Source: a virus. Taken from it: a stretch of 64,000 nt of DNA. How positions within the stretch are numbered: position 1 is the stretch's first letter; every line of letters starts with the position of its first letter. The stretch covers positions 96,001 to 160,000 of IMG/VR virus record IMGVR_UViG_3300045988_179268; one strand, 5' to 3'. A program made the position numbers and the translations under genes. The notes beneath the pieces are model-generated. The model was not told the DNA's origin. It did no database searches and saw only the letters and a list, made by a program, of their open reading frames with translations. Shown here one piece after another: positions 46,831 through 61,120 of this stretch.

Positions 46831-47916
46831 ATGTCTGTTTTTCCTGGTGATGTTGTGTCTACTGTTGTGGGTGTTCTGCATGTGCAGACTATTGTTATGG
46901 AGCGTTCGCGTGAGGATGTGTCTTTCGCGGTGTCTGGTGTTGATGGTGGGGGTGTGGTTCACTCGAACATTCCTATTGGTGAGGGTGTGGTTCCGTTGGC
47001 TGTTGATGTGCCTGAGTCTGAGGCGTTGGTGTGGTTTGACCGTGAGCGTCGCTTGAAGCGTTTGGGGGATGCTGTGTTTAGTCCTGGTGATGGTGTTAGG
47101 GCTTTGGGTAAGCTGATGGAGGGGCAGGGTGTTGAATTGTCGTTGTCTGACTGTGAACCTGCTGAGGCTGTTGTTAGGTGGCTGGGTGAGGTTGAGGCTT
47201 CTCTGGTTGGGGCGAGGGCGTGGGTTACAGGGAAGCGTATGGAGTGCCTGCGTGCGTTTGAGGATTTTCATGCGGGCTGGTTGAAGTATCATAGTCGCCC
47301 TTGGGGTGAGCCGTCTTTGGGTGAGCGTTGTGATGTGCGACCTGGTATTGGGTTTAGGTCTGGTGGTGTGTATCGGTTCCGACGTGAGGGTGCGCCTATT
47401 GAGGATGGGTATGAGTATTTCAAGGTTGTTCGTACTGTCGGTCAGCCTGAGATTGTTATTTATGGTGCGTCTACTGAGGTAAGTGAGTGTCTGGGTTTTA
47501 TTCATGGTGTTAAGTATGGTCCTAACTATGATTATCTTCTCCTGCTGGCTGAGGTTGGCGGTAAGAAGATTTCGATGCTGGCGGATACTGTGAAGCTTCT
47601 GCCTATTGGTTCTTTTGAGGATATTGAGTCTTACCTTGAGTTGAGTGAGTATGAGGACGTTTCTCTTCCTGGCGCATTGCGCAACATTTTCCTTGACCTG
47701 TTTGCCGCTGGTGACGGTAAGCCTAAGTGCCTGCCCTCCCGTGAAGAGCTTAACGGTGGCTACTACGGTTGGGGTGATGACTACGGTAAGCGTTGTGGTG
47801 AGTTGATGGAGGCAAGTGCTGACATTCTGTTCGATATTGAGAAGAGTATCGGGTATGTCCGGTGGTTGCGTGAACAGCTGGTAGGCTTCTATCGTGAGCT
47901 AGGGTTCACTATCTAG
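46831..47916 (+). CDS. family-1 paralog (V/G-rich, G+T-recoded copy)
   Basis: Aligns with 52996..54063 and 60347..61120 (VSGV, WFD, ARAWV..KR.ECL, VYRF, GKPKCLPS, FDIEKSIGYVRW). RBS GAAAGGG. Confidence 0.65.
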   Translation: MSVFPGDVVSTVVGVLHVQTIVMERSREDVSFAVSGVDGGGVVHSNIPIGEGVVPLAVDVPESEALVWFDRERRLKRLGDAVFSPGDGVRALGKLMEGQGVELSLSDCEPAEAVVRWLGEVEASLVGARAWVTGKRMECLRAFEDFHAGWLKYHSRPWGEPSLGERCDVRPGIGFRSGGVYRFRREGAPIEDGYEYFKVVRTVGQPEIVIYGASTEVSECLGFIHGVKYGPNYDYLLLLAEVGGKKISMLADTVKLLPIGSFEDIESYLELSEYEDVSLPGALRNIFLDLFAAGDGKPKCLPSREELNGGYYGWGDDYGKRCGELMEASADILFDIEKSIGYVRWLREQLVGFYRELGFTI

Positions 47917-48161
47917 GGGGGTCGCCGCCTAGGGAGGGGTGGCGTATGGGAGCCGCTGAATCCTCCGGCTACTAGGTTTGGGTGACCGCTCTTGTAGTTG
48001 ATGGCGAGCGCTCTCTTGGGCGGCTATGTCTTAGTGGTGGTTGTTTGCTGGTTGCTTCGCTAAGTGTGGTGATGGGTGTGAGTGCTTGAAGGGTGCTCAT
48101 GCCCATCATTTGTTTCTGCTGGGGTGAGCCACACACTATAGCTTGCGCCCCCGTCTGAATC

Positions 48162-48172
48162 TGTGGTATAAT
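48162..48172 (+). promoter_or_regulatory. extended -10 promoter (tgTGgTATAAT)
   Basis: tgtggtataat lies 70 nt before ATG 48242 (RBS GAGGAG). Confidence 0.55.
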
Positions 48173-48241
48173 TAAATTGTTCAATCGGGGGTGTTTCCCG
48201 TAAAGCCAATGACCAATACGCATGTTTGAGGAGTCACACAA

Positions 48242-48640
48242 ATGTCCTGCGCTGTTAAGATGATGAAGCCCTACACTTACACCACCCTTCCCTTTACCGC
48301 TACCAGCACTGCCCACATGGGCGATGTTGAGTCATGGGTTTCTTCTAAGATGACTCTTGAGTTCGTATCCTGGGATTCAGGTGAGGAGGCTCACGTTACT
48401 TATGGGGTGCAGGCGACTAACCCGGCTAAAGAGCCTGGCGATGACGGCTGGTTGATTGGTCGTGTGACTATGAGTGTTGATGTTGAGGGTGAGGTTGCTC
48501 TGAGTGATGCTCTTATGCGTCGTATGGTGGAAGACTTTAAGGTTGTGATGCGTAATCGTGTAGCGCAGGGTCAGGCTCTTGTGGACTTTGAGGGTGGGGT
48601 TCCGGTCTTTAAGCAGACTGTGACGTTCGCTACCGTGTAG
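48242..48640 (+). CDS. small acidic hypothetical protein
   Basis: 132-aa ORF with promoter, RBS and a downstream hairpin (aaagccg..cggcttt). Confidence 0.6.
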   Translation: MSCAVKMMKPYTYTTLPFTATSTAHMGDVESWVSSKMTLEFVSWDSGEEAHVTYGVQATNPAKEPGDDGWLIGRVTMSVDVEGEVALSDALMRRMVEDFKVVMRNRVAQGQALVDFEGGVPVFKQTVTFATV

Positions 48641-48775
48641 TAGGTGGCATGTGTTAGCTTTAAGCCGTGGGGTGGCTTCCTGTACAGGGGTTGCTTTGCG
48701 GCTTTATTTATGTTTCCTGTGACTTATATGTGGTTGTGGTGTTTCCACCTCGTAGGTTGCCTCAATGTTTCACTG

Positions 48776-48786
48776 TGTGAGATAAT
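48776..48786 (+). promoter_or_regulatory. extended -10 promoter (tgTGaGATAAT)
   Basis: tgtgagataat. The transcript would begin at the RBS-loop hairpin 48793-48812. Confidence 0.45.
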
Positions 48787-48855
48787 GGGTATGAGTACTT
48801 AGGAGGGTGCTCATGTTAATTATTTATTTTCTTGTGAAAGGAAGGTGTGCCTGTT

Positions 48856-49032
48856 ATGGGTGTTGTGAAGGGTGGTCGCTCTTTGGTTCGTGAGTCTGGT
48901 GTGGTTCGTTGGGATGATGGTTCGCGCCTGTTTGGTGAACGGTTTGCGAGCGCCAACTATAAGGTCACTATCGGGCGCGTTAATGTTGGTACTGCTGAGG
49001 TTGGCATTGGGTCGTCTGAGGGGCGGAGGTAA
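48856..49032 (+). CDS. small hypothetical protein (58 aa)
   Basis: ATG after GAAAGGAAGG. Its stop lies next to the GGAGG of the following small gene. A micro-ORF (48813-48893) overlaps it in another frame. Confidence 0.4.
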   Translation: MGVVKGGRSLVRESGVVRWDDGSRLFGERFASANYKVTIGRVNVGTAEVGIGSSEGRR

Positions 49033-49035
49033 GGC

Positions 49036-49209
49036 GTGCCTATTTGGGTTATTGCTTTAGAATCCTATGTCCTAATTATGGTTCTAGTTTTCAGTCTTGG
49101 CATTGCTCTTGATGTGAACATGAGGAGTCTTGTTGAGATGCTTGCAGTGATTCATATACCTGTTCTTATTGCCGCCGGTGTAGCTCACTTTGGGCTACAC
49201 ATAATCTAG
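49036..49209 (+). CDS. 57-aa small membrane protein (below track cutoff)
   Basis: GTG 6 nt after GGAGG (49025-49029). VPIWVIALESYVLIMVLVFSLGIAL...IPVLIAAGVAHFGLHII. Confidence 0.45.
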   Translation: MPIWVIALESYVLIMVLVFSLGIALDVNMRSLVEMLAVIHIPVLIAAGVAHFGLHII

Positions 49210-49247
49210 GTGACTTTCGATTGCCACTTATAACAGGAAGGTGAAGT

Positions 49248-49409
49248 ATGGGTCTGCTGATTATTGTCTTGGTTTTTGTTTTGATTGAGGCTTTACTTTC
49301 TCTTGTTGGGGTGTGTCTTGGTTGGGGTGCCTATGAGTACTTAATGATACATGTTGTACTGTATGGCGTTACGTTTGTTGTGGCAGGTTCCAGTATGACC
49401 TCTGTGTAG
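49248..49409 (+). CDS. 53-aa small membrane protein (below track cutoff)
   Basis: ATG after AGGAAGG. MGLLIIVLVFVLIEALLSLVGVCLGWG...VVLYGVTFVVAG. Confidence 0.45.
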   Translation: MGLLIIVLVFVLIEALLSLVGVCLGWGAYEYLMIHVVLYGVTFVVAGSSMTSV

Positions 49410-49503
49410 ATGACGGCTAGGTGTTGTACGTGGTGTGCGGCTAACTAATATAGTTCTTTGTGTCCCACTTCACACATATTTGGCTTGCATACAGTTTTAA
49501 ATC

Positions 49504-49514
49504 TGTGATAGACT
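49504..49514 (+). promoter_or_regulatory. extended -10 promoter (tgTGaTAGACT), with TTGCAT -35 at 18-nt spacing
   Basis: aatctgtgatagactata is nearly identical to the boxes at 55920 and 57231. Confidence 0.55.
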
Positions 49515-49586
49515 ATAAATATAAGGCAAGCGGGAAAGAAACCCGAAAGCCACGAAGCATCAACCAACTACCGAAGGGTGGCAACC

Positions 49587-49901
49587 ATGTCCGTCGCAAC
49601 TTTCAACTTTGAGCTTTCCGCTGAGGAACTTGCAGAGCTTGCACCCCACGCAAACTACGAGTACTCCAACTGCTGTGAAGTCAAGGTAGACCACATCGAC
49701 ATTAACGACTACGATAACACCATCACCCTTACTCTAGGAAATGACCACGGTGCGCATGAGGTGGATGCTACCCCTGAGTCTGCTGAGGACTTCGAGGCAC
49801 TTACCTCTCGTTACGAGGGAGACGAGATTGCCGGGTACCGTCTCGACAAGGCTATCTACAGCCTCGACCCCGAAGATGGAGAGGTTGAAATCAACATCTA
49901 A
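49587..49901 (+). CDS. small highly acidic protein
   Basis: ATG 49587 follows GAAGGG + 8 nt. By my count 26 D/E versus 4 K/R in 104 aa. Confidence 0.65.
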   Translation: MSVATFNFELSAEELAELAPHANYEYSNCCEVKVDHIDINDYDNTITLTLGNDHGAHEVDATPESAEDFEALTSRYEGDEIAGYRLDKAIYSLDPEDGEVEINI

Positions 49902-49908
49902 ACATTGA

Positions 49909-49945
49909 CAAACCCCCTATGGAGTTAGTACCCATAGGGGGTTTG
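49909..49945 (+). terminator. rho-independent terminator
   Basis: caaaccccctatgg / ccatagggggtttg. Confidence 0.8.
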
Positions 49946-50024
49946 TGTTATATGCTTGTCTTAGCGGTGGAACGGCATTCTCTGTGGCATAGTTAGATAA
50001 TCTTCATAGTGAACCTTTGGCGCG

Positions 50025-50033
50025 TGTTACAAT
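50025..50033 (+). promoter_or_regulatory. extended -10 promoter (TGtTACAAT)
   Basis: gtgttacaat lies 68 nt before ATG 50101. Confidence 0.45.
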
Positions 50034-50100
50034 TGTTGTGTATGGGTTGGGTAGTCCGCCTAGCCGCATAATCCACATTTATTAGCTGGAGAGGGATACT

Positions 50101-50853
50101 ATGACTGAGAATAGCCACAAGGAAGCGCCCGCATGGGTGGAGGTCACTCCTGATACTGTTACTGCGCCCGCTGACTTGTTGCGTGTGGCTAACGTTGTGT
50201 TCGACCTGTTGAGGGCGTTTCGTGTTGATGAAGACCCGGACTTGAAGGAAGCTATTGAGAGGGCTTTAGATTGGGATACGAACGCGGCTAAGGGTAAGGT
50301 GCCCTATCATATTCTGGAGCCTCTAAAGGCTTTGCCTAGCCGTGAGGTCATTGATGCCCGCATTGACTATTATAGGCATGAGATGCAGGCGGGGCGTGTA
50401 GATAACATGTGCGGTATTCCTGCGTTCCTTAGTGGTTCTATGCTTACGGCTGATGAGGTGTCCCGCAATACTGGAATCCCGGAAGATGAGCTTCTACGTG
50501 AAGCGGATTCGTTTGCTTCACGGTTTGTTACAGACCTTGAGTATGAGGATGCTGATGGTAATGAGTCGCCGCGTTTCTACTCAGAACAATTTAAGCCGGA
50601 TGGGACGCTTGATGACCGTAAAGCTGACTATATTTCTGCGGCTGGGAATTACTTTAACGATGCGCCGGGGTTCTTCCATGACGTGTTTTCACCTCAGCTG
50701 ATTTTGGGTTATGTTAGCCCGGTGGCTTATGCCGCTTTGAGCGATGAGCATCTGGAGGCGTGCAAAGAGACGAACCGCCTGTACATGGAGTGCTGGGACA
50801 TCACCGCTGACGACGACATCGAAGACCTAATGTTCCCCTACGAAGAAGAGTAG
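50101..50853 (+). CDS. hypothetical acidic protein, family 2 (HTH-like plus FQF/SP module)
   Basis: LTADEVSRNTGIPEDELLREA, PRFYSEQFKPDG and ILGYVSPVAYAAL parallel 39788..40588. Confidence 0.6.
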   Translation: MTENSHKEAPAWVEVTPDTVTAPADLLRVANVVFDLLRAFRVDEDPDLKEAIERALDWDTNAAKGKVPYHILEPLKALPSREVIDARIDYYRHEMQAGRVDNMCGIPAFLSGSMLTADEVSRNTGIPEDELLREADSFASRFVTDLEYEDADGNESPRFYSEQFKPDGTLDDRKADYISAAGNYFNDAPGFFHDVFSPQLILGYVSPVAYAALSDEHLEACKETNRLYMECWDITADDDIEDLMFPYEEE

Positions 50854-50899
50854 CTGTTTGCACCCTGCATCAACATTCCAATATAGAGTGACTTTAAGG

Positions 50900-50908
50900 T
50901 GTTATACT
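50900..50908 (+). promoter_or_regulatory. extended -10 promoter (TGtTATACT)
   Basis: ggtgttatact lies 40 nt before ATG 50948. Confidence 0.4.
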
Positions 50909-50947
50909 GGTTAGCACGTTTCTCGATATTGCTAGGAGTGGCACGTA

Positions 50948-51142
50948 ATGACTTTCCATATTGATAGTTCGGTACTGTCCGTGCTTTGTGCATGTTCCCT
51001 TGTGCTTTGCCTTTTTGGATTTTTTCGCGCAATGTCTAAGTTTATAGGCGCTACGGATGCGCGTGAAGCTCCCGTTTGGGTTCTTTGGATGGGTGTTTGC
51101 GCGGTTGGTGTTATCCTATCTGTGATGTCCATGATTCTCTAG
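50948..51142 (+). CDS. small membrane protein (64 aa)
   Basis: GGAG RBS. Two hydrophobic helices. Confidence 0.45.
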   Translation: MTFHIDSSVLSVLCACSLVLCLFGFFRAMSKFIGATDAREAPVWVLWMGVCAVGVILSVMSMIL

Positions 51143-51338
51143 CGCATGGGGTTATATCCGCCATCTTTGGGGGCTAATGTTGCCGTGTCTACTTTCACCA
51201 CTGTGGCGGCTATCTATGTGGTGATGTGGTAAAGAAAAGAGTAGAACGGCGTTAAGTTCACACGTTACACCACAGCTACATTCACCTCTTCAAGCCATTG
51301 CCGCCGTTTATCCGCTAATTTCTTTTTAGGAGTAATCT

Positions 51339-51629
51339 ATGTACATAAATATGGATGCCGTGGTTCATTCAGCAATTTTCTTAGCGTTTGCAGGAGTTGG
51401 TGCAATGATGGTGTACCAGGGGTTTGTGACTATCGGGCAAGCTAAGAATAAATTCCAAGCCTTTATAGGGTTCCTTACTGGTATTGTCGGTATCTTCACG
51501 GTGTGTTGGGGTTTGGCGAACGCATTTCCGCATAACCCGAACGCGGGTACACTTCCAGCTAGTACAGGTGACACTAGTTCAGTGAATACTAATAACAGCG
51601 GTGGCGGCGACATCATTAATGGGTTGTAG
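51339..51629 (+). CDS. small membrane protein (96 aa)
   Basis: AGGAG RBS. 3 hydrophobic segments and a G/N/S-rich tail. Confidence 0.5.
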   Translation: MYINMDAVVHSAIFLAFAGVGAMMVYQGFVTIGQAKNKFQAFIGFLTGIVGIFTVCWGLANAFPHNPNAGTLPASTGDTSSVNTNNSGGGDIINGL

Positions 51630-51635
51630 TGCGCC

Positions 51636-51857
51636 ATGTTGGAGGTAGCTGTTACGGGGGCTAATATTGCTTCCGTGTTCCATGTGGTATTTTTCTTGCT
51701 AATTGCGGGCATTGGTCTGTTGTTGGTGATGTTGGCTGTCGGGGTTACTTCATCTCCTCTTGATACTGCAATGGACGCTATTCTAGGTGTAGCTATTGGC
51801 GTTATTGGGATAAGCATGTTCTGCTTTGGGGTGCAGATGGTGTTTCCGCTTAATTAG
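51636..51857 (+). CDS. small membrane protein (73 aa)
   Basis: Starts 7 nt after the previous stop. 2-3 TM helices. Confidence 0.5.
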   Translation: MLEVAVTGANIASVFHVVFFLLIAGIGLLLVMLAVGVTSSPLDTAMDAILGVAIGVIGISMFCFGVQMVFPLN

Positions 51858-52022
51858 AGTTTGGGCACGATTCCCGCTAGTGGGGGGGGTGGTAGTTCGG
51901 TGAGTGTTGAGTTGATGGTGGTTGCTTCGCAATGGTTTGCAACTTATTTGTTGCTTGACAGCGCCACGGCATCCTGTATATTCTAGATACTAATCATTGT
52001 TTTCTATAGGAGTGTGCTTATC

Positions 52023-52445
52023 ATGTTTTTTAGTTCTGTCGCCACTGACTCTTTGTTGCTTTTTGCGATGTTTGGTAGCTTTTTCACGGTATTACCTGGA
52101 ATTGTTCTACAGCTGTTCGCGCTAATGGATGAAGATGAGGAGCCATTCGGTAAGCGACAGTATTTCAACTTGGCAAAAATGACGTTTATGACCGGGGTGC
52201 TGTTTGCTGGCATTGCGGTCTGTATTCATATCTTTGCCCCGGATAATGTGGTTCCTAATAGAAGCTCTGTGCCTGAGTTGTGGGCGATGTTGTGGGTCGC
52301 GCCGGTCATGTCCCTTGTATTATGCTTTGTCACTACTGGGCTAACTGCTTTGGTCGCGGTTCTGTGGCGTGTTCTTGATGCGCTGTTGAAGTACCCTGTC
52401 GGTTGGTGGTGCGCACTAATGGGGCGTACTGGCGACAGTGAATAG
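52023..52445 (+). CDS. membrane protein (140 aa)
   Basis: ATG 52023 is 10 nt after TAGGAG. 4 TM helices. Confidence 0.55.
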   Translation: MFFSSVATDSLLLFAMFGSFFTVLPGIVLQLFALMDEDEEPFGKRQYFNLAKMTFMTGVLFAGIAVCIHIFAPDNVVPNRSSVPELWAMLWVAPVMSLVLCFVTTGLTALVAVLWRVLDALLKYPVGWWCALMGRTGDSE

Positions 52446-52478
52446 TTGCATAACTCGCGATTGATGTCGCGGTAAATT

Positions 52479-52489
52479 TGTGGTACACT
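52479..52489 (+). promoter_or_regulatory. extended -10 promoter (tgTGgTACACT), with TTGATG -35 at 17-nt spacing
   Basis: tttgtggtacact lies 62 nt before ATG 52551. Confidence 0.55.
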
Positions 52490-52550
52490 ATTTTTAAATA
52501 CGAGGCGTTAAGTATCACGCCCAACACATCAACCCCTAAGGGAGTCCCCC

Positions 52551-52946
52551 ATGCGTTTCACGTCTAACTTCAAGTTCAAGGCTGTCACTCCTAGTCCCGA
52601 TAAGCTTGCCGACTTTTGGTGGCATGACGAGTTCGCCGTCGAGAATGTCGAGATTAAGCAGGCGAACGACCCGCAGGAACAAGGCAACTATGTCGTAAAG
52701 TTCACTATTGAAGAGCCTTTCTATCTCCCCTCTAATGATGAGGATGATGACTATGTGCCGGATAACTGGGAACCTTCCAAGATGACTTTTATGCAGTGCG
52801 AACCCGTTCCCTACGGTTTGGCTGTACGCATTAAGGATGAAATTATCCGAATGACGGCAAACGGATATATTGACGCGCCTGACGTTATTAATGGCATGGA
52901 TATGTACGACTTGGAGATTGCCTACGGCGGCATCTCTGGCATGTAG
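52551..52946 (+). CDS. small acidic protein
   Basis: 131 aa. D/E-rich (..PSNDEDDDYVPDNWEP..). Confidence 0.6.
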   Translation: MRFTSNFKFKAVTPSPDKLADFWWHDEFAVENVEIKQANDPQEQGNYVVKFTIEEPFYLPSNDEDDDYVPDNWEPSKMTFMQCEPVPYGLAVRIKDEIIRMTANGYIDAPDVINGMDMYDLEIAYGGISGM

Positions 52947-52995
52947 CATCCCGTGGGCACCCAATACCCAACCAACACCCCTAGAAGGAGGAATC

Positions 52996-54063
52996 ATGGA
53001 TATTTCTGCTGTAAATCGAGGCGACATCCTCATTGATGAACCATACGTCTACCGCGTCCTGACTGTAACGACTGATGGTAAGGCGCGACTACTGCGACCT
53101 AATGGCGACATTGGAACCGCAACCATTACCCCTGATGAGCCTTGGGAGCATGTGCCTAATGCCACGGCTGAGGATTGGCTGTTGTACTGCGCTAAGAGTC
53201 GCGCCGCCCAGCAAATCATCACGAACCTTAGCGGTACTGACCTTAAAGACCCTATTAGCGCATACAACGCCGAACATGGGGCGCTAGGCGTGGAAGTAGG
53301 TCTACAGCTGACCCAACAGCAGAAGCAGGCTATCTGCAAGCGCCTAGACGAATACGCTGAGGCGGTAAGTGAGGCGCGCGCCTGGGTTGCAAAGCAACGC
53401 ATCCGATACAGTGAAGCGACCGCAACGCTGTTTGAGAAGATGCCCGAAGATACCTACAGTATCGCGGAGCCTCGTTACTTCGAGTCACTAACCCACCCTC
53501 AGGTGGAATTGAGGGGTGCAACTCTCGCTGTCGGGCGCGTCTACCGATTCAACTGCAAGAAGAGCAGTAACTCTGCTGGGCGTTCGCGAGGCTATTTCCG
53601 TGTAGACAGCATCAAGGGGAAGAAGGCACATGTAACCCTAGATGACGGTACTACCGGCTACATGTGCATTTCAGACTGGAACGCATGGGAATACCCCCTA
53701 CAGCTAGTAACCAGCACCGAAACCTACGACTGCTCAAACAGGTTCTCGCCTGTAAATGTAGATGACCCCACGGAGGGTTTCGCATACGCCAAATATCTGG
53801 GAACGATGCGTCACCTCGGCGTGGAAGCCGCTAAAGCATACCAGAACCTATTTGAGAAGCCGGAACGTCCCGCAATGCTAACCGGACTGTTCCGTAAAGA
53901 TTTCTACTCGCCTCTCTACACGGGTTCACGCCGCAACCCCAACAACATTCAGGAAGCATACAAGGCGGCTAACCAGGAAATTGAGCAGGTCTATGACCGC
54001 CTCGCAGATACTGAACACGAACTGCGTGACACGCGGGAACTTGTGAGCTTCCTAACAGTGTGA
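52996..54063 (+). CDS. family-1 paralog
   Basis: ATG 52996 follows GGAGG; the tracked start 52870 overlaps the previous gene. EARAWVAKQR and GRVYRFN..GYFRV motifs are shared with 46831..47916. Confidence 0.65.
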   Translation: MDISAVNRGDILIDEPYVYRVLTVTTDGKARLLRPNGDIGTATITPDEPWEHVPNATAEDWLLYCAKSRAAQQIITNLSGTDLKDPISAYNAEHGALGVEVGLQLTQQQKQAICKRLDEYAEAVSEARAWVAKQRIRYSEATATLFEKMPEDTYSIAEPRYFESLTHPQVELRGATLAVGRVYRFNCKKSSNSAGRSRGYFRVDSIKGKKAHVTLDDGTTGYMCISDWNAWEYPLQLVTSTETYDCSNRFSPVNVDDPTEGFAYAKYLGTMRHLGVEAAKAYQNLFEKPERPAMLTGLFRKDFYSPLYTGSRRNPNNIQEAYKAANQEIEQVYDRLADTEHELRDTRELVSFLTV

Positions 54064-54178: not shown

Positions 54179-54652
54179 GTTTGCTTGCAGGTTTCCCAGA
54201 GGTTTGCGACAGTAAGCAACGATGCAACGTGTCGCATTTATCCTCATCTTATTTTCTTAGTTTGCCAATTGTCGCCGTCTCGCAACACTATTATTGCAGT
54301 CGGTTACTCTATAACTCCCTTATGTTGCTTGTAGGTACTGGCTTCTACGCGGTTTTCATGCCAGGTGTTTGCCCCAGGCATTGTTCAGGTGAATACCCCA
54401 GGCATCACGCCCTAGAATTGTGCAGGCGTAGTTCGCGGTTAGTTCATAGTTTATGTCAAGCAATATTCATCTCACCCCGCAAAGGCGACCTTTTGAGCTG
54501 TTCTAGATTGCGATATACGGGTTACATGCATTGCTGAAATGGTGCATGTGAAATATACTCCCGCTATCCCCATGCTGGTTGCCTAGCACTCATAATGGCA
54601 TGGCGTTACCAATTGCTGATAGTGGGAACAATAGAATAGGAGGAACCTACAT

Positions 54653-55831
54653 ATGGTTTCTATTAAATCGTTTGTTGCGCGTGCAAGCGCAGGTGTTCGC
54701 TCTGACATTCTTTCCCTGAGTAACGAGTGTAAGATGCTACTCCCGGATGGGGCTACTTTACGTAGTGCTAAGTACGAGATTTTGACTACCGATAAGCATA
54801 GTGTCGCTATTGGCGACACAAGGTATTATCGTATTCGTGCTTTGCGTAGGATTGAGCGTCCGTTTGGGTTGCCGCCGGTTGAGCCGGGTGACCTTGGCGG
54901 GTATGTTACTTTTGATACTGGAAACTCGCTTTCTAACGAAGGTGATTGCTGGGTCGCTGATGAAGCGTTTGTGTCAGGTTATGTTTCGGGTGATTCTCAG
55001 GTGACTGGTCACGCCCATGTTGGTTACCCATCTACAGTTAGCGGTAAGTCGCTCATTTCTGATTTTGCGCAGGTGATTGACGGTGCCCATGTGGATGAAT
55101 CGTTAGTTACTGGTTTTGCACAGGTGGTTGGTCGTAATTTTGAGGGGCTATACCTTGAAGAGCCTTCGCTTGAACTTCTTGGTGAACAGACGCAGGTGGT
55201 CAATCACTCGTGGGTTTCGGGTCGTGCCCGTGTTTCTGATGGTGCGTATGTGCATAGGTTTAGTTCTATTAAGGGTTCATCTGTTGTGTCTGGTCCCATC
55301 TTTTTGACGAATGGCTCAAGTGTTGCGGGTGTTGTGCTTACAAGCGAGTGTGACATGGTGCTTATTCGTGGTGAGTTTATTGATGAGCCTATGAACATGT
55401 GGGGTTGCCCGAAGGGTATTGTTGTCCACGAGGGTGATGGTAAGATTGAGACTTTGCAGGCGCTTGGTGACATTGACCGTGGAGCTGTCTTACCTTACTT
55501 TGGCGGGGACTATTTACGTTGTGCTAGGACTCCTAAAGAGATAGGTAAGATTTACGGCATTGAGGAACTTGAGTTTCACGATACTGGCAATGGGACATGG
55601 GCAAGCTCTTTTGACAAGAGTATCGAAGCGCCACGCAAGATACTCGTTTCTTCTGCGACTGGCATCGAGTATTTCGAGCCTGCATCCAAAGAGGAAAAGG
55701 CAGAGTATCGCGATAAGATGGTCGAGAAAGCTGAAAGTATGCGTGAGGTTCTTAAAGGGCAACGAGACATAAGGGATACTATTCAGTCTGATGAACGAGC
55801 GGCTTGGCACGCCGAACACCCGGAAGAGTAA
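54653..55831 (+). CDS. beta-helix-like repeat protein with acidic C-terminal coiled coil
   Basis: AGGAGG RBS. Degenerate repeats of the type VSG.S.V.G.A.V (GYVSGDSQVTGHAHVGYPSTVSGKSLISDFAQVIDGAHV..). Confidence 0.6.
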   Translation: MVSIKSFVARASAGVRSDILSLSNECKMLLPDGATLRSAKYEILTTDKHSVAIGDTRYYRIRALRRIERPFGLPPVEPGDLGGYVTFDTGNSLSNEGDCWVADEAFVSGYVSGDSQVTGHAHVGYPSTVSGKSLISDFAQVIDGAHVDESLVTGFAQVVGRNFEGLYLEEPSLELLGEQTQVVNHSWVSGRARVSDGAYVHRFSSIKGSSVVSGPIFLTNGSSVAGVVLTSECDMVLIRGEFIDEPMNMWGCPKGIVVHEGDGKIETLQALGDIDRGAVLPYFGGDYLRCARTPKEIGKIYGIEELEFHDTGNGTWASSFDKSIEAPRKILVSSATGIEYFEPASKEEKAEYRDKMVEKAESMREVLKGQRDIRDTIQSDERAAWHAEHPEE

Positions 55832-55919
55832 GGAATACTAGCATATAAGAGAAGAATGCATCTATGGTAGTATGGATGTTCCACCTCGCCTATATTTGCT
55901 TTGCGCATGGTTTAGAATC

Positions 55920-55930
55920 TGTGATAGACT
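55920..55930 (+). promoter_or_regulatory. extended -10 promoter (tgTGaTAGACT), with TTGCGC -35 at 18-nt spacing
   Basis: aatctgtgatagactata is the same 18-mer as at 49501-49518. Confidence 0.55.
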
Positions 55931-56001
55931 ATAGGTGTAGCAAGGAAGATGATTTCCAATGAAAAGCTACAGCCACTTTCCTAGACTGAGAGGTTGTCGT
56001 T

Positions 56002-56325
56002 ATGCAGACCATTTACAACACTGACCGCCACTTCATTTCCTCTGTGGACATTGCACTTACTGAGGGTGCCATTACTAACGTGGATGAACTGATTGCCGGT
56101 ATTAAGGGCTTCAAGCGTGCCGCCGATGGCTCTGTTGTCTACGGTCCGTATATTGTTCAGAGTGACACGGTGCGCGTTGAGCTTGATGCAGGTATCGAGG
56201 CAACCCTTATTCTTAGCGAGAATGCTGTAGAGATTTCTGCTATTGACCTCGAAGATGGATTTGCTGTTGATATGGTAACGACTCCTGAGGCGAAGGAGTT
56301 GATGGAGTACTTCGAAACTATCTAG
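56002..56325 (+). CDS. small acidic protein
   Basis: 107 aa. ~20 D/E versus 6 K/R by my count. RBS GAGAGG. Confidence 0.6.
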   Translation: MQTIYNTDRHFISSVDIALTEGAITNVDELIAGIKGFKRAADGSVVYGPYIVQSDTVRVELDAGIEATLILSENAVEISAIDLEDGFAVDMVTTPEAKELMEYFETI

Positions 56326-56337
56326 TGCTTAAATACA

Positions 56338-56378
56338 TAAACCCCCTTATTGCAGAGGGCTTGCAACGAGGGGGTTTA
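56338..56378 (+). terminator. rho-independent terminator
   Basis: taaaccccct / agggggttta with an inner ttgca / tgcaa pair. Confidence 0.75.
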
Positions 56379-56659
56379 TGTGCGCCTACTACGGCGTATG
56401 CTCAGTGAATTACTATAAATGGACGTGTTACCCACTATGGATTTTCGCACTACACATGCGGCGTATCATTGGCAAAGCTTCATCGCCTGTAACCTATTGA
56501 AAAAAGGGGGTGTACAAGAAGCTGACATTATGCTATGATTGTAACAACGTTGAATCCTGGGGAGGATGGGACGTTGAAGAGCCTTAGGGTGGGTACCCTA
56601 AGGCTCTTCTTTTTGCCCACTCAGGCATAGTAAGTCAATGTTCGCTACATGTTTATTTC

Positions 56660-56670
56660 TGTGGTACACT
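56660..56670 (+). promoter_or_regulatory. extended -10 promoter (tgTGgTACACT)
   Basis: ttctgtggtacact. TTCGCT -35 at 18-nt spacing. Confidence 0.5.
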
Positions 56671-56707
56671 TGGTTTAATAAGTTTTCTACCGAAAGGGGT
56701 TCACATC

Positions 56708-57136
56708 ATGGCACAGGTTATCAACATCATCAACTTCATGGGCCGCCAGCTTCTTGAAGAGGTCGAGGAAGGTCGCTTCAAGCTTGGTGAAATGACTGAG
56801 CTTAACCGTCAGGCAACCCTCAATGCACTTACTGAGAACGAAATTGCTAAGGTTGAGGCGATTGAGGAAAATGAAGATGGCACCTTCCTGCTGGCTCTGG
56901 AAGGGCGAGAGATTAGCGCGTTGATGGGCAACTACTTTGCAGACTATGGACCCCTAGTTGCAACCATCAGGGAGCCTAGTAACTTCCTCTTTAAGGCTAA
57001 TGACTATCTTCTCTTCGCTACCGTAAAGGCTGACGGTGAGCTTGCCGATAAGTTCCGGGAGATGGTAGAAAGCGATTGGTCTTACTCAACCTACGTGGAT
57101 GAGTTCGACGACCGGGAGGGCACCCTTACCATCTAA
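56708..57136 (+). CDS. small acidic protein
   Basis: 142 aa. RBS GAAAGG. E/D-rich. Confidence 0.6.
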   Translation: MAQVINIINFMGRQLLEEVEEGRFKLGEMTELNRQATLNALTENEIAKVEAIEENEDGTFLLALEGREISALMGNYFADYGPLVATIREPSNFLFKANDYLLFATVKADGELADKFREMVESDWSYSTYVDEFDDREGTLTI

Positions 57137-57145
57137 CGACATGCT

Positions 57146-57178
57146 GAAAGCCCCTCAGTAATAAGCTGAGGGGCTTTC
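57146..57178 (+). terminator. rho-independent terminator
   Basis: gaaagcccctcag / ctgaggggctttc. Confidence 0.8.
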
Positions 57179-57230
57179 TCTATTCCTTAAAGGTGTGACA
57201 GATTCCGTTTCGGGTGTATGACGCTAAATC

Positions 57231-57241
57231 TGTGATAGAAT
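57231..57241 (+). promoter_or_regulatory. extended -10 promoter (tgTGaTAGAAT)
   Basis: aatctgtgatagaatata. Confidence 0.5.
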
Positions 57242-57307
57242 ATATGTGTAGGGCAAGCAGATTGGAAACCTGATGTCCATTTAAACCCACTGAAAGGATT
57301 GTTAATC

Positions 57308-57700
57308 ATGGCAACCCCGTTCCTAACCTTTGCAAACGAACAGAATTTGACTATCGAGTTCATGTTCGACTCTTGGGAGAAACTTCGTTACGTTGCGGAA
57401 AATAAGCCGCCGGTCTTACTCAAAGGTTATATGCACACTGAATCGGAAGACCACGGCGGCGGATTCGTAAGCCATATCGCCACAATCGACCCCGACGTTG
57501 CATTTATTACCGGCGACAACAAAGTTAGCTACGGCACTGCCGTAAAGAAGAAGACTAATCATTTCATGATGCACCTTTTAGCCGGTGGCTCAGCCGCAAA
57601 GCTCTACATTAAGGATTACACCATTGAAGTGGACGAAGAAGAGGGCGGTATTACACTAAGGTTCACTGAGCTTTTCCAGGAAAACCCTTACGAGTGCTAG
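57308..57700 (+). CDS. small hypothetical protein
   Basis: ATG 57308 follows GAAAGG + 10 nt. 130 aa. Confidence 0.6.
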   Translation: MATPFLTFANEQNLTIEFMFDSWEKLRYVAENKPPVLLKGYMHTESEDHGGGFVSHIATIDPDVAFITGDNKVSYGTAVKKKTNHFMMHLLAGGSAAKLYIKDYTIEVDEEEGGITLRFTELFQENPYEC

Positions 57701-57759
57701 ATTGATAGTAATATAGGTTCAGCTTGTGGGTTTTATGGCAATTAGCGGGATGTGTAGCA

Positions 57760-57939
57760 ATGCGGAAGAAGTACGTTATAGCTTCCCTGTCGGTATTCTT
57801 ACTCGCTGGCGCTTATTCTGGGCTATGGGTTGCAAGCGTTTCTGACGGATATGTTCGCCTGTGGTGGTTCGCTCTTTCGGTAGTAATGGGGAGTATTGGC
57901 GGTATATTTTCCGTGTGGTCAGATTCTCTACGCAGGTAG
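57760..57939 (+). CDS. small membrane protein (59 aa)
   Basis: MRKKYVIASLSVFLLAGAYSGLWV...WWFALSVVMGSIGGIF. The tracked start 57724 is less likely. Confidence 0.45.
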   Translation: MRKKYVIASLSVFLLAGAYSGLWVASVSDGYVRLWWFALSVVMGSIGGIFSVWSDSLRR

Positions 57940-58022
57940 TTGGCTTACTTGCGCAACGGTCACCATAAAAGGCATCTACTTTCGATGTAGTAGATGCCCT
58001 TGCCTGCATTTTGGAGTTAATT

Positions 58023-58223
58023 ATGATGTTCTTAAAAGCTGTCGTAGCTGTCATTCCATTCATCATTTCGGTGTTTATGGGGATAGGCGGTGCCCTCATC
58101 ATTGAGGAATGCCAGGACAAGGGCAAACCTGGTTCACCTTTGGGGCATATGCTTATAGCGGTGGGCATGATTGGCGTTGTAGTAACACCCGCGTTAGCTA
58201 TCCTATGGTTGCGACATTACTGA
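58023..58223 (+). CDS. small membrane protein (66 aa)
   Basis: ATG after GGAG. Two TM helices flank EECQDKGKPGSP. Confidence 0.45.
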   Translation: MMFLKAVVAVIPFIISVFMGIGGALIIEECQDKGKPGSPLGHMLIAVGMIGVVVTPALAILWLRHY

Positions 58224-58323
58224 GTGTGCGACTACGCAGGCGGCGCATCTGGCTACACACCCTGACCTAACTACCTTACAGTGATGCGGCACATACCGCT
58301 TTAATAATTCCCCCGTTATCGCT

Positions 58324-58334
58324 AGTGGTAGAAT
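58324..58334 (+). promoter_or_regulatory. extended -10 promoter (TGgTAGAAT)
   Basis: agtggtagaat lies 67 nt before ATG 58401. Confidence 0.45.
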
Positions 58335-58400
58335 GGTAGAGATACTATCTGTTCTTGTGGCGCGCAACGTCACACGCAAACTCTCTACAGGAAGGTTCTC

Positions 58401-59264
58401 ATGATTGCCCCATACACGTTCTTAATTCCGCTAGTTGTCGGCGGTATTGGTATCCTCGCCTCAGTCTGGCTATTTAAGACGTTTGTCAGTAATGATGCTG
58501 ACGGCGGCGATTCTCGCCACTGGTGGATGAATTGCACCCATGTAGGTGTCTGGGTCGTACTGCTACTGTCCCTGCTGATTGTTGGTGTGGTAACCAAGCC
58601 TGGAGAGGCGGCATTCGGGAACCTGCTGACTGGTTGGGGTGTTGGAGGGTTTATCGCCCTTGTCGTTAGCGTGCTTCTCCTGATGCTATTTGATGCTTTC
58701 GATGAGGATGACGGGTTGTGGGCTGGTCGTGTGCTTCGCACCTGGTCTACCGTAGGTCTGCTTCTCCTGACGCAAGGCTTGTGGAGTGCTAGTGCTTCAC
58801 CGTCCAGGTTTGGTTCAAACCCGGTGTCGCTAGAGTATGCGGTTGCCGCCGATGGCTCCAAAACATCTGTGGTGTCTGAAAAATATCAGCTAGTGAAAGG
58901 TGAATCTGAGACGTGGGTTTCTGTAGGTAAAGAAGACCGTGGTAGTAAAGAACCTGTTCAGGTATATTCATGGGTTGAGGCTCGTGAACTATCCTCCTCA
59001 GGCGAGGTGCTGGTTGCCTCTAAGGTAATCTATAAGTCGGATGAGGATGAGGTTGCCGTGATTGATGATGTCCCAGCAAACGGCAAAGCCTGGGTTGAGT
59101 ACAGAGACATGTTCTACCTCGCCCCCGCCGGTCTCCTAGATTCTTCCCGCCCAGACCCCCTACAGGGTAAGCTGTGCGTACAGGGTCGAGATAGCGGATG
59201 CGCGGTGAACGCGAAGCCCGCATACAAGAAGATTATGATTCACGTACCAATGGGCGGAAAGTAG
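58401..59264 (+). CDS. membrane protein with C-terminal extracytoplasmic domain
   Basis: 287 aa. 4 N-terminal TM helices, then a soluble beta-rich domain. RBS AGGAAGG. Confidence 0.6.
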   Translation: MIAPYTFLIPLVVGGIGILASVWLFKTFVSNDADGGDSRHWWMNCTHVGVWVVLLLSLLIVGVVTKPGEAAFGNLLTGWGVGGFIALVVSVLLLMLFDAFDEDDGLWAGRVLRTWSTVGLLLLTQGLWSASASPSRFGSNPVSLEYAVAADGSKTSVVSEKYQLVKGESETWVSVGKEDRGSKEPVQVYSWVEARELSSSGEVLVASKVIYKSDEDEVAVIDDVPANGKAWVEYRDMFYLAPAGLLDSSRPDPLQGKLCVQGRDSGCAVNAKPAYKKIMIHVPMGGK

Positions 59265-59363
59265 GGCACTATGGCTAACTTCTTTGTAGGTCTGTTTCTA
59301 CTATTGGTTTTATTGTTCTTCTGATCGCGGACTTTTTGGCTCATTGTTGCCTGGTTCGCAGGA

Positions 59364-59561
59364 ATGTTCTTATGGGTAAGCGCCTTTGGTTATGCCCTAT
59401 CCTTAATGTTTAGTGATTCATCGGCAACCCCGTATGTGTGGGGCGCTATCCTGGGCATACCCCTGTGGTGTATCGGCAGTCTCTTCTACTCGACATTTGA
59501 GTTTTGCGGGGAAAGCCGTGATTCGCAGTGGGAACCACATTACCCACGTTATAGGCGTTGA
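59364..59561 (+). CDS. small membrane protein (65 aa)
   Basis: Two hydrophobic helices. Weak RBS. Confidence 0.4.
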   Translation: MFLWVSAFGYALSLMFSDSSATPYVWGAILGIPLWCIGSLFYSTFEFCGESRDSQWEPHYPRYRR

Positions 59562-59598
59562 GCTGTCGTATGGCTATTCGTTGCTTGGAAAGGTGTAA

Positions 59599-59913
59599 GT
59601 GTTGCCTGATTCACATTTTATACTTAGTGTATTGGCGTTCATCGTGATTGCTTGGGTCTGGAGCACGCTCTGGTTCTCACCCTTTAAAAAAGGTTGGCGC
59701 GGCTTCGTTGAGTGCGCTGGTTGGTCCGGGTTTGCGGCAATGTTCCTGAGCCTCTTTATGCTTTTTGCGGCGCAGATGATAAATCGCCCCATCCGTGATG
59801 GCGAGTTTCTGACTGTAGCTCTGATTGAACTAGTGGTGTTCGTCATATCCACCGTGTGCATATGTATCCCCGATTGGTTGCCTGCCGGTAATGATGTGAA
59901 CGATGCAGAATAG
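59599..59913 (+). CDS. small membrane protein (104 aa)
   Basis: GTG start after GGAAAGG. 3 TM helices. Confidence 0.5.
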   Translation: MLPDSHFILSVLAFIVIAWVWSTLWFSPFKKGWRGFVECAGWSGFAAMFLSLFMLFAAQMINRPIRDGEFLTVALIELVVFVISTVCICIPDWLPAGNDVNDAE

Positions 59914-59975
59914 CGGTATGATAGAAAGCGTAGGGTAACTCTACCTCACTATCTCATTCCATTTAGGAGGCACAT

Positions 59976-60095
59976 ATGGCTTACAATGCTTCACGCGGTT
60001 TCTTGCGTTCTTTCGGAATTTCCACGGCAGGTTATTTTATGGGGTTCGCTTTGGCTGACCTAATTTTCACCTTTATCTCTAGAGGTGGCTTCTAG
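59976..60095 (+). CDS. 39-aa small membrane protein (below track cutoff)
   Basis: ATG 6 nt after AGGAGG. MAYNASRGFLRSFGISTAGYFMGFALADLIFTFISRGGF. Confidence 0.4.
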   Translation: MAYNASRGFLRSFGISTAGYFMGFALADLIFTFISRGGF

Positions 60096-60148
60096 AGGTA
60101 CGAAATAGCCCTGCTGACCAGTGAGTAATTACTGCTCGATACAAGCAC

Positions 60149-60192
60149 GTATTGAATGAAGAGCCTTCTAAGTGTAGAAATGCAGTTAGAAG
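60149..60192 (+). terminator. rho-independent terminator
   Basis: aagagccttctaa / ttagaaggctctt, then tgtgt. Confidence 0.8.
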
Positions 60193-60279
60193 GCTCTTTG
60201 TGTACCTGCCGCTACAGCTGTCCGCGCTTCAACACTGCGTTTCAGTAAGAGCATTAATCCCATAAGCAACCCTGAAATA

Positions 60280-60290
60280 TGTGGTAAACT
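60280..60290 (+). promoter_or_regulatory. extended -10 promoter (tgTGgTAAACT)
   Basis: atatgtggtaaact. Confidence 0.5.
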
Positions 60291-60346
60291 ATGAATAGTC
60301 AATAAGTCCTGTGTTCACAATGACCACCTATAGAAAGGTTGCAAAT

Positions 60347-61120
60347 ATGCCTGTTTCTCCCCGCGATATTATTTATATTCACTCTCCCTTTTACGTTCAC
60401 GCCGTAAAGTCGGAAAAGAATCTTGACGGTGAATTTCTCACCGTGTCCGGTGTAGAATATGATGGCGAATATTGGAGGGACTTTCCGGTTCAGGAAGGCA
60501 ATTATGTCACCCTGGCAGAAAATGCCTCTGAGTGTGATGTTTGCAAGTGGTTTGACTATGCGCACCGCCTCCACAGCATCACCCGCGCTATCTTCGTTCC
60601 CCGCGAAGATGAGGGGGCGGCTTACCGTAACTACTGCCAGAACAGCGATATACCTCGATACCATCTGTGTTTGTCGCTGACTGACCGTAACCCCGCCAAT
60701 ACCGTCTCTAAACTCTTGCTTGATGCTAAGGATGCTCTTGCTGAGGCGCGCGATTGGGTACTGAAAAAGCGCCGCGAGTGTCTAGATGTTTTTGCTGAGC
60801 GCTACGCTGATTATCAGAAAGAACCCTCTGATGAGCCTCTTAATGAGGTGTTAGGTAGTGTCTATGCTGAAATGTTCAGCTTCGGGGGAGGTAAGCCTCT
60901 ATGCCTCCCCTCCCCGGCTGAGGGATACGTTATCTATGGCAAGACCTATGACGAATGCGCCGCCCGGTTGATGGAGGTCACCTTCGAAATGATGTTCGAT
61001 ATTAGTAAGAGCATTAGCTATATCGAGTGGGTGCATAGTGAGCTTGATTCCCTCTATAATGAACTGGCGCGTAAGTTCGACCCTGCCTGCTGGGAAGTAG
61101 TAGAGAAGCTTTCCATCTAA
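60347..61120 (+). CDS. family-1 paralog (short form)
   Basis: ATG 60347 follows GAAAGG + 8 nt. Aligns end to end with 46831..47916, apart from a ~130-aa insert present in the latter. Confidence 0.65.
   Translation: MPVSPRDIIYIHSPFYVHAVKSEKNLDGEFLTVSGVEYDGEYWRDFPVQEGNYVTLAENASECDVCKWFDYAHRLHSITRAIFVPREDEGAAYRNYCQNSDIPRYHLCLSLTDRNPANTVSKLLLDAKDALAEARDWVLKKRRECLDVFAERYADYQKEPSDEPLNEVLGSVYAEMFSFGGGKPLCLPSPAEGYVIYGKTYDECAARLMEVTFEMMFDISKSISYIEWVHSELDSLYNELARKFDPACWEVVEKLSI

Follow-up and report, generated by a model that had tools for sequence, protein, structure and literature searches.

The stretch of DNA analysed here (64,000 nt, hereafter the window) carries three plus-strand genes, c1, c2 and c3, whose coordinates coincide with the JGI and ENA gene calls. 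c1 (46831..47916) encodes a recoded 361-aa protein and lies in a G+T-rich right arm; c2 (52996..54063; 355 aa), a remote full-length relative, and c3 (60347..61120; 257 aa), which lacks a middle beta domain, are both of ordinary composition. The initial annotation had aligned these genes by eye as a three-member family, and profile comparisons bore this out. c1 and c3 matched in BLASTP (E = 1e-18, 31% identity over 168 aa; E = 4e-16, 38% over 86 aa) and in hhalign (probability 100%, E = 1.2e-48), with c3 having no counterpart of c1 residues ~157-272. c2 showed a weak pairwise similarity to c1 (E = 0.003; hhalign 93.7%, E = 1.9e-7, 108 columns) and a marginal direct one to c3 (E = 0.004; hhalign 11%), but aligned over 333 columns with the profile of the broader family (A5; hhalign 99.0%, E = 2.5e-18). 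The shared motifs listed in the initial annotation are visible in the alignments, and family HMMs searched against the 494 ORFs of the window matched c1, c2 and c3 and no others. In a neighbor-joining tree c3 forms the sister clade of c1, and seven distant full-length members keep the c1 architecture.

The predicted family fold starts with a small beta-barrel and a long helix, followed by a middle beta domain and a C-terminal part made of helices; the AlphaFold2 model of c1 has a pLDDT of 77. No member had a motif that could be named by eye, and the database searches agreed: Pfam and PHROGs gave no match to the family, a PDB sequence search returned coiled-coil noise and nothing else, and the best Foldseek hits (E = 0.048 in PDB, 0.005 in BFVD) had TM scores of at most 0.2, with no significant match. 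The three paralogues belong to a lineage-restricted protein family with no assigned function; circular elements of ~320-376 kb, which form a clade and come from human oral metagenomes, carry it in several copies. The element represented by the window, a circle of 319 kb, can be described as a giant mobile element of human mouth bacteria.

c1 has a G+T content of.66/.56/.85 at its first, second and third codon positions, as compared with.59/.44/.57 in c3 and.50/.41/.47 in c2, and A occupies 3% of the third positions of c1. The bias in c1 and its neighbours follows the order third > first > second codon position. In c1, Gly (12.7%, vs 4.3% in c3 and 5.6% in c2) and Val (10.8%, vs 7.4% and 5.9%) are enriched, Asn is depleted (1.1%, vs 3.5% and 4.2%), and Lys, Thr and Tyr are likewise scarcer. 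The earlier description of c1 as rich in V/G/R and poor in I/T/K/N/Y holds for these six residues, but not for Arg (6.9, 5.4 and 7.0 in c1, c3 and c2, respectively) or total Ile (4.4, 4.3 and 4.2). We summarized this tendency as a keto/amino ratio, dividing the residues whose first two codon positions are keto only (G, V, F, W, C) by those in which they are amino only (K, N, T, H, Q, P). This ratio spans 1.83-3.12 in 120 listed c1 orthologues, all of them rich in Gly and Val, without overlap with c3 (0.74-1.11) or c2 (0.60-1.48). Since the seven distant full-length members are also ordinary (0.46-1.23), c1 represents the derived state, in line with the proposal that the skew was imposed on an ordinary gene.

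A sharp switch in keto/amino skew (45480..45560) lies to the left of c1, which is 1.3-2.4 kb away from it, with c2 and c3 at distances of 7.5 and 15 kb. At the switch, which coincides with the local minimum of the cumulative GC skew of the window (~45000), the G+T content of the plus strand rises from.31 (45251-45500) to.74 (45501-45750); across ~45.5 kb the GC skew turns from -0.69 to +0.34 and the AT skew from +0.80 to -0.44, the local extremes per kb being -0.71 and +0.89. The right arm (45500..49500, ~4 kb), with 58-76% G+T on the plus strand, contains a 123-aa gene (46290-46661), c1, a 132-aa gene (48242-48640) and small ORFs. Its third-position G+T runs from.88 through.85 in c1 to.76 in the 132-aa gene and then.42, and the arm ends abruptly, with plus-strand G+T falling from.68 to.39 at 49501-49750. 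In the left arm (37459..45450), the plus strand is 64-94% A+C and the minus strand G+T-rich, and most genes lie on the minus strand, where their third-position G+T is.95,.93,.88,.87 and.91. The skew therefore does not belong to the plus strand of a single module, as first described, but to two arms of opposite sign that recode genes of either orientation. It forms a plateau that changes in steps where genes begin or end, rather than a smooth gradient; the extremes are local to 37.5-49.5 kb, where third positions are 85-98% keto, and a milder skew of the same sign runs through the rest of the window.

Next to the switch lies a 245-bp tandem duplication (45710..46085, plus strand; 0 matches expected by chance), in each unit of which a 69-nt element (97% identical) is accompanied by a hairpin whose stem measures 12 bp. 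Promoter-like hexamers are also present at the switch; beyond the repeats and hairpins, neither a replication initiator nor a known origin motif was identified in this region. Six-base palindromes occur at about half of expectation throughout the window, and the arms show no added avoidance beyond that explained by their composition.

Genes lying on the plus strand within the left arm separate strand from gene direction. A 273-aa gene (42179..43000, plus strand) is mirror-coded, with a third-position G+T of.07 (92% A/C), and its protein is rich in Thr, Asn, His and Glu; its indels with respect to relatives are multiples of 3, and its orthologue in a related genome, L003, has a third-position G+T of.05. 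Other plus-strand genes of the left arm have values of.10-.34, and across three genomes the plus-strand genes of this arm span.05-.34, as against.85-.98 for those on the minus strand. Outside the arms, plus-strand genes have values of.42-.43 at 17-35 kb (.32 in p35626) and.42-.72 at 49.5-61 kb. That plus-strand genes of the left arm are mirror-coded indicates that the pressure follows DNA strand and position, and neither protein nor mRNA.

Relatives of the element provided natural comparisons. The same switch was found in L003 and in the more distant L011; in the latter, two family genes located 6-8 kb from the switch are ordinary (third-position G+T.61-.66). A third relative, L008, carries a natural chimera of c1 and c3 (P0137): L008 3851-10325 corresponds to window 40723-47159 and L008 10303-11864 to window 60670-62232, with the crossover at 47137..47159 on the c1 side and at 60670..60692 on the c3 side (both plus strand), and window 47160-60669 is missing. 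At the junction, the third-position G+T of P0137 drops from.90-.96 to ~.5, and in the recently translocated c3-derived segment amino-to-keto changes do not predominate (13 vs 27). Together, the L011 copies and the L008 chimera show that composition is set by position rather than by family. A strand-acting, position-dependent pressure brought every resident gene of the arms to the local composition, most strongly at synonymous sites and more weakly at codon positions 1-2; it moved c1 towards Gly/Val and away from Asn/Lys/Thr/Tyr, and genes on the opposite strand towards Thr/Asn/His.

The c1 protein tolerated this recoding, as had been anticipated. Its ORF is intact in at least 248 homologues (60-100% identity), 113 columns are invariant among 24 c1 orthologues (61-89% identity), and columns invariant across the family are kept in c1. 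The dN/dS of c1 (0.48-0.66) is three times that of c2 (0.16-0.18) and c3 (0.16), a difference partly inflated by depressed synonymous divergence in c1 (pS.30 vs.59 for the same genome pair). With its reading frame intact, its conserved blocks kept and its dN/dS in this range, c1 stayed under purifying selection; a decaying pseudogene was considered and rejected on these grounds.

Replacements polarised with outgroups comprised 19 amino-to-keto and 7 keto-to-amino nucleotide changes on the c1 branch, with A>G accounting for 12 of the 19, and 15 and 19, respectively, on the c3 branch (Fisher p = 0.036). The A>G and C>T signature suggested initially is supported only in part, as the c1/c3 differences are not purely transitional: the amino-to-keto asymmetry extends to all four classes (A/G 58:20, C/T 53:24, A/T 25:12, C/G 44:9) and, at 31-38% identity between c1 and c3, reflects equilibrium composition rather than a mutation spectrum. 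A relative with 62% amino-acid identity to c1 has the same architecture and is equally G+T-rich at third positions (.85), indicating an ancient recoding that has reached equilibrium and not a recent event. Recent substitutions, polarised by parsimony and expressed per base, were T>C.115 vs C>T.0165 and G>A.057 vs A>G.013 on the plus strand of the left core, and C>T.063 vs T>C.033 in the right arm; the flank was symmetric. Read on the keto-rich strand, C>T and A>G exceed the reverse changes 2-12 fold per base, from small counts, and at four-fold sites C>T reaches.67-.86 vs.07-.10 for T>C. The four-fold sites of the arms, read on the same strand, hold 0-4% A and 3-10% C, and G<->T transversions account for 37-51% of the four-fold events there.

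Overall, the explanation that we consider probable is a recoding of c1 driven by strand and position, in which single-strand exposure from the switch is, as we infer, the most likely cause of the skew. In this scheme, DNA synthesis or an R-loop would begin at the switch, an origin or initiation zone working in both directions, and leave the outward-running strand on each side single-stranded. Damage of the C>T and A>G types would accumulate in excess on this strand, similarly to the vertebrate mitochondrial heavy strand or bacterial leading strands, but with far greater intensity and within a confined region.

In vertebrate mitochondrial DNA, the asymmetry between heavy and light strands is associated with C>T and A>G deamination that depends on the time spent single-stranded. 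The zone described here resembles that case in having one G+T-rich strand, a bias that peaks at four-fold sites and reaches the amino-acid composition, mirror-coded genes on the opposite strand, and C>T and A>G changes that exceed their reverse per base. It differs in its confinement to 12 kb of a ~320 kb element, where two arms have opposite signs, in that A and C are both at 0-10% of four-fold sites, and in its step-plateau profile and prominent G<->T exchange; strand-displacement replication is here only conjectural. In bacterial and phage replicons, the leading strand has G > C and T > A, and the cumulative skew has its minimum at the origin. As in such replicons, both skews invert at one point, the outward 5'-3' strand is keto-rich on each side irrespective of gene orientation, and the rest of the window is mildly skewed in the same direction; the magnitude, however, is far beyond the usual, the origin is putative, and rather than a moderate skew across the replicon we found extremes confined to 37.5-49.5 kb, with ~8 kb lying left of the switch and ~4 kb right of it. 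According to a concept attributed to Lawrence and Ochman, gene composition reportedly ameliorates towards the resident genomic context. The arms fit this in their convergence on the local context, in the order third > first > second codon position, and in the retention of donor composition by newly arrived DNA (the c3 half of the L008 chimera), but here the context is a position within one replicon and the pressure consists in a strand skew of keto vs amino bases, not in G+C content.

Several observations count against exposure at an origin as the cause: the step-plateau profile, the G<->T share, the absence of a keto excess in the c3-derived segment of L008, and the failure to recognise an initiator or known origin motif at the switch. 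In addition, four-fold transition divergence per site is.045-.054 in the arms vs.074 in the flank, which argues against pure excess deamination, since that predicts the reverse; selection or biased repair explains this pattern no less well. The directional mutation postulated at the outset would account for the keto-biased changes, and so would DNA-level selection or biased repair.

Under selection at the DNA level, the arms would be maintained as a strand-segregated duplex (G/T vs A/C) because the zone requires that property, and residents such as c1 would be forced into a two-letter third position; one strand may need to be unable to fold when single-stranded, or the zone may have a structural or recognition role at a site of initiation or transfer. 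We regard this as the foremost alternative, if an unlikely one. Class-preserving G<->T changes match transitions in frequency at four-fold sites (29/57 and 15/41 events), and, per G/T site, G<->T reaches.040-.058 in the arms vs.028-.036 in the flank with transitions lower in the arms, as purging of A/C alleles would give, although the counts are small, mosaic recombination blurs any comparison of rates across regions, and strand-asymmetric deamination with lowered reverse rates fits the same numbers. In the left core, A>C and C>A together number 25/74 and A>T 0. The zone architecture is conserved among relatives as far as L011, and a protein that is 99-100% identical is held in an arm at a third-position G+T of.91; against this stand the lack of any known function for such a zone and palindromes avoided no more than composition explains. 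We put forward only tentatively that the two-armed G/T-vs-A/C zone serves a function for these giant oral elements and is actively maintained, overriding codon and amino-acid choice in its residents, with c1 as the family member located inside it.

Strong divergent transcription from 45.5-46.2 kb is a less probable source of the asymmetry. It would expose the non-template strands to deamination in bubbles or R-loops, which a G-rich non-template strand favours, and embedded antisense genes would be recoded passively. The genes of each arm mostly point away from the switch, where the duplicated 69-nt element, its hairpin and the promoter-like hexamers lie, but the 93-95% A/C at third positions of plus-strand left-arm genes would need a wholly dominant antisense read-through. 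Moreover, outside the arms the mild skew flips at the switch without a flip in gene orientation (.42-.43 at 17-35 kb;.32 in p35626), a pattern of the replication type and not of the transcription type. A coding strand that is keto-rich on both sides of the switch was not observed, as plus-strand genes on its left are A+C-rich at third positions.

A conjugative leading region, in which the switch is an oriT and the right arm with c1 enters the recipient first, single-stranded and deaminated, is very improbable: conjugation transfers a single strand, so that no inversion of skew sign is expected at nic, and here the sign inverts, leaving two opposite arms unexplained, while no relaxase, oriT or anti-defence family was recognised and one 360.6 kb relative is listed as viral in IMG/VR, even though the window encodes a TcpF/VirB4-like ATPase (AAA_10, 5.6e-34; NCBIfam TcpF, 1.7e-21), a PrgI/TcpE-like protein, a CD3337/EF1877 mobilome membrane protein domain, a 1159-aa M23 peptidase protein, a T2SSE ATPase, a ParA-like protein and an SSB, and the right arm resembles a leading region of conjugative plasmids in its small co-oriented genes, which have no known homologues and of which some occur as paralogous copies, beside a structured non-coding region. 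The conjugation genes are of the Gram-positive type.

A search of the literature for this two-armed zone found no description of it. The zone shows that working genes tolerate third codon positions reduced to two bases, with one neighbour of c1 remaining 99-100% identical across relatives and another recoded in the opposite way because it sits on the other strand. The c1/c3 pair, the distant ordinary members, the relative with copies outside the zone and the recent chimera offer natural comparisons of how a DNA-level pressure acts on proteins. If single-strand exposure at an origin is the true cause, the zone marks the origin in a large family of uncultured oral elements; if selection is, it would represent a functional DNA domain of a novel type.

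The genes c1 (46831-47916), c2 (52996-54063) and c3 (60347-61120), all on the plus strand and encoding 361, 355 and 257 aa in gene calls that match these coordinates, proved homologous, as the initial annotation had proposed from alignment by eye. BLASTP aligned c1 and c3 in two blocks (E = 1e-18 and 4e-16), and profile-profile comparison gave a probability of 100% (E = 1.2e-48); residues ~157-272 of c1 are missing from c3, which has lost the middle domain. Pairwise similarity of c2 to c1 and c3 is remote (E = 0.003 and 0.004). Against the c1 family, hhalign recovered c2 at 93.7% (E = 1.9e-7), covering the ‘ARAWV’ helix and the ‘GGVYRF...YFKV’ domain, and alignment became end-to-end once the profile took in distant members (99.0%, E = 2.5e-18, 333 columns). 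HMMs of the three sub-families detected no fourth copy among the 494 ORFs of the window, and when 1.84 billion representatives were searched by profile, only 27 members emerged. Seven distant, full-length members keep the four-part architecture of c1 and have an ordinary composition.

The composition of c1 departs from that of its paralogues at all three codon positions, with G+T fractions of.66/.56/.85 at positions 1/2/3, as compared with.59/.44/.57 in c3 and.50/.41/.47 in c2; A makes up 3% of its third positions. Glycine accounts for 12.7% of c1 residues (4.3% and 5.6% in the others), valine is enriched, and Asn, Lys, Thr and Tyr are depleted, so that the residue bias first described held in these respects and failed for Arg and for total Ile. 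The ratio of keto-encoded (G/T) to amino-encoded (A/C) amino acids is 1.83-3.12 in 120 c1 orthologues versus 0.46-1.23 in the seven distant members; because the latter are ordinary, the c1 composition is the derived state. With distant family members of ordinary composition as outgroups, replacements on the c1 branch comprised 19 amino-to-keto and 7 keto-to-amino nucleotide changes, as opposed to 15 and 19 on the c3 branch (Fisher p = 0.036). The initial annotation had attributed the recoding to A->G and C->T changes on the plus strand. Twelve of the c1-branch changes are indeed A>G, but in the codon alignment of c1 with c3 all four amino-to-keto classes are asymmetric, transversions included (A/G 58:20, C/T 53:24, A/T 25:12, C/G 44:9). 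At this divergence, the asymmetry reflects an equilibrium composition rather than a transition-only spectrum.

The right arm in which c1 lies (45.5-49.5 kb; plus-strand G+T 58-76%) is one of two that meet at a switch at ~45.5 kb, where the composition flips within ~100 bases; in the left arm (~37.5-45.45 kb), A+C reaches 64-94% of the plus strand and T falls as low as 2%. Beyond the arms a mild skew continues with the sign of each side, placing the minimum of cumulative GC skew at the switch. The same architecture is found again in relatives with 75-99% nucleotide identity, as well as in L011, a far more distant related element. Directly at the switch lies a 245-bp tandem duplication (45710-46085), each unit of which contains a hairpin, CTTAAAATCAAC-N8-GTTGATTTTAAG, as well as a 69-nt element (97% identical). 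In ENA, one independently assembled version of the large element stops at ~45710, at the first 69-nt element. Rfam and tRNA scans detected no RNA genes in the region. The right flank (including 49578-49901 and 52996-54063) is a patchwork, with gene-by-gene position-3 G+T of.42,.70,.59,.47,.72,.65,.53,.57 and.57, which could represent mosaic genes of differing residence time under one mild pressure. A lone A+C-rich patch ~10 kb to the left of the switch (35251-35750; G+T.23-.30) is flanked by two plus-strand genes and overlaps a 156-aa minus-strand ORF (35037-35507) with a position-3 G+T of.70.

In the left arms of three genomes, every plus-strand gene has a position-3 G+T of.05-.34, and minus-strand neighbours have.85-.98, an opposition that ties the bias to the strand of the DNA and to location with respect to the switch, and not to coding strand, mRNA or protein. 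At four-fold sites of arm genes, the keto strand holds only 0-4% A and 3-10% C, indicating a pressure on DNA that the proteins resist. The 273-aa left-arm gene at 42179-43000 (+) has 92% A/C at position 3, encodes a Thr/Asn/His-rich product and differs from its relatives by indels in multiples of three. On the minus strand, the 561-aa protein of 37459-39144 shows 99-100% identity across four relatives (dN/dS.01-.03), even though 91% of the third positions in its gene are G/T; the protein matched no family and no PDB entry, and its C-terminal ‘PDIV...VAVEIERGFGKK’ resembles, by eye, a PD-(D/E)xK nuclease motif. The ORF at 43084-45360 (-; 745-758 aa) consists almost entirely of Gly, Val, Leu, Ser, Phe, Trp and Cys, and its length varies among relatives (568-745 aa). 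Every frame is open across this DNA (plus-strand A+C 86-94%), since the bases required for stop codons are missing; differences from relatives are ~1.8x commoner at position 3 than at 1 or 2, suggesting that the ORF is probably coding. Six-base palindromes occur across the whole window at about half of the local-composition expectation (232 observed vs 503 expected in 1-35 kb), a deficit typical of restriction avoidance; the arms have no extra deficit, and we rejected palindrome avoidance as a role of the skew.

The expectation that the protein had tolerated the skew was borne out: c1 is intact in at least 248 homologues, shows 113 columns without variation across 24 orthologues (61-89% identity), and keeps all family-wide invariant columns. 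Its dN/dS is 0.48-0.66 versus 0.16-0.18 for c2 and c3, a value inflated by the depressed synonymous divergence where position 3 has only two usable letters (in one genome pair, pS is.30 for c1 vs.59 for c3); its dN is 1.4-2x that of the paralogues. Decay to a pseudogene was rejected on these grounds; c1 is a functional gene under purifying selection. The AlphaFold2 model is of usable quality (pLDDT 77, pTM 0.60) and predicts a five-strand N-terminal barrel, helices spanning 62-154, then a beta domain (166-256) followed by further helices (262-356). Consistent with the earlier failure to name a motif, neither sequence searches nor Foldseek with this model found significant relatives of c1 in Pfam, PHROG, PDB or BFVD; in Foldseek, weak Tudor/SH3/KOW-like matches were confined to the barrel.

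Two related elements strengthen the case for recoding of c1. In L011 the switch is present, yet both family genes lie 6-8 kb away and are ordinary (position-3 G+T.61-.66). In L008, recombination between c1 and c3 removed the stretch corresponding to window 47160-60669, 13.5 kb in all, leaving a chimeric gene, P0137 (L008 10001-10753; ERZ27319536 k141_484291). Its junction (window 47137-47159 and 60670-60692) falls in the LSL(S/T)D block common to both parents, and position-3 G+T drops from.90-.96 before it to ~.5 right after it. The c3-derived segment thereby moved into the arm shows no surplus of changes toward G/T (13 amino-to-keto vs 27 keto-to-amino), but the translocation is probably too young for this comparison to be informative. 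Another protein, P0158, joins the c1 N-terminus (residues 1-141) to an unrelated C-terminus, and c3 is followed by an 82-aa gene, immediately downstream of which the related element L009 carries a 534-aa Cas12f1/TnpB-like gene as an insertion (L009 11317-12921).

The source is a ~319 kb circular element, represented by the 319,371-bp circle JGI 3300053491 Ga0557493_018680, that recurs in several independent human oral assemblies and has relatives of 258-376 kb. In its leftmost 37 kb the window has genes for SbcC-like, DnaB, SSB and helicase proteins, together with Gram-positive conjugation-type genes (6140-13662 and 31531-37191: CD3337/EF1877 membrane domain, 1159-aa M23 peptidase, PrgI/TcpE-like, TcpF/VirB4-like ATPase, ParA-like and T2SSE ATPase); no virion genes were seen within the 64-kb window. 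One relative, a 360.6 kb contig, is classed as viral in IMG/VR and is the sole c1 match there; c2 peptides matched nothing in that database, INPHARED held no DNA or protein match to the region or to c3, and GTDB genomes gave no match and hence no host link. Instead of a jumbo phage, the element may represent a conjugative megaplasmid. Its oral source and a size of ~350 kb suggested an Inocle, an identity we rejected because the G+C of the window is ~49%, as compared with 24-32% in Inocles (PMC12340149).

Recent substitutions, called against the related element L005 (94-99% relative) and polarised by two outgroups, have per-base rates biased in the direction of the skew: on the plus strand of the left core, T>C (.115) exceeds C>T (.0165) and G>A (.057) exceeds A>G (.013), and in the right arm C>T (.063) exceeds T>C (.033) and A>G (.043) exceeds G>A (.031). 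Rates in the flank are symmetric, and the raw numbers of opposing changes come out roughly equal, which is what compositional equilibrium predicts. At four-fold sites C>T reaches.67-.86 per site vs.07-.10 for T>C, and G<->T transversions make up 37-51% of events. Per four-fold site, the arms have fewer transitions (.045-.054) than the flank does (.074), which fits a purging of A/C alleles, or else a process that differs between the strands and slows the reverse changes as well. The data are compatible with mutation bias and with DNA-level selection and do not separate the two; we consider selection for strand segregation rather unlikely as the origin of the arms. In the mutational reading, the likeliest one, we infer that the switch would be an initiation zone, with the strand running outward on either side being the one exposed single-stranded, a geometry shared with leading-strand and mitochondrial heavy-strand skew. 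Divergent transcription or R-loops at the switch seem improbable as a source of the asymmetry, and a conjugative leading region, which leaves the sign inversion unexplained, highly improbable.

Precedents exist for strand skew, for amelioration and for the mirror-coding of genes on the opposite strand. A local two-armed zone with 85-98% keto third positions and conserved working genes, found in hundreds of giant oral elements, seems to be previously undescribed, a literature search having turned up no account of one. Within it, resident genes have been recoded according to their position and strand, a recoding that is ancient and at equilibrium, with c1 maintained under purifying selection.
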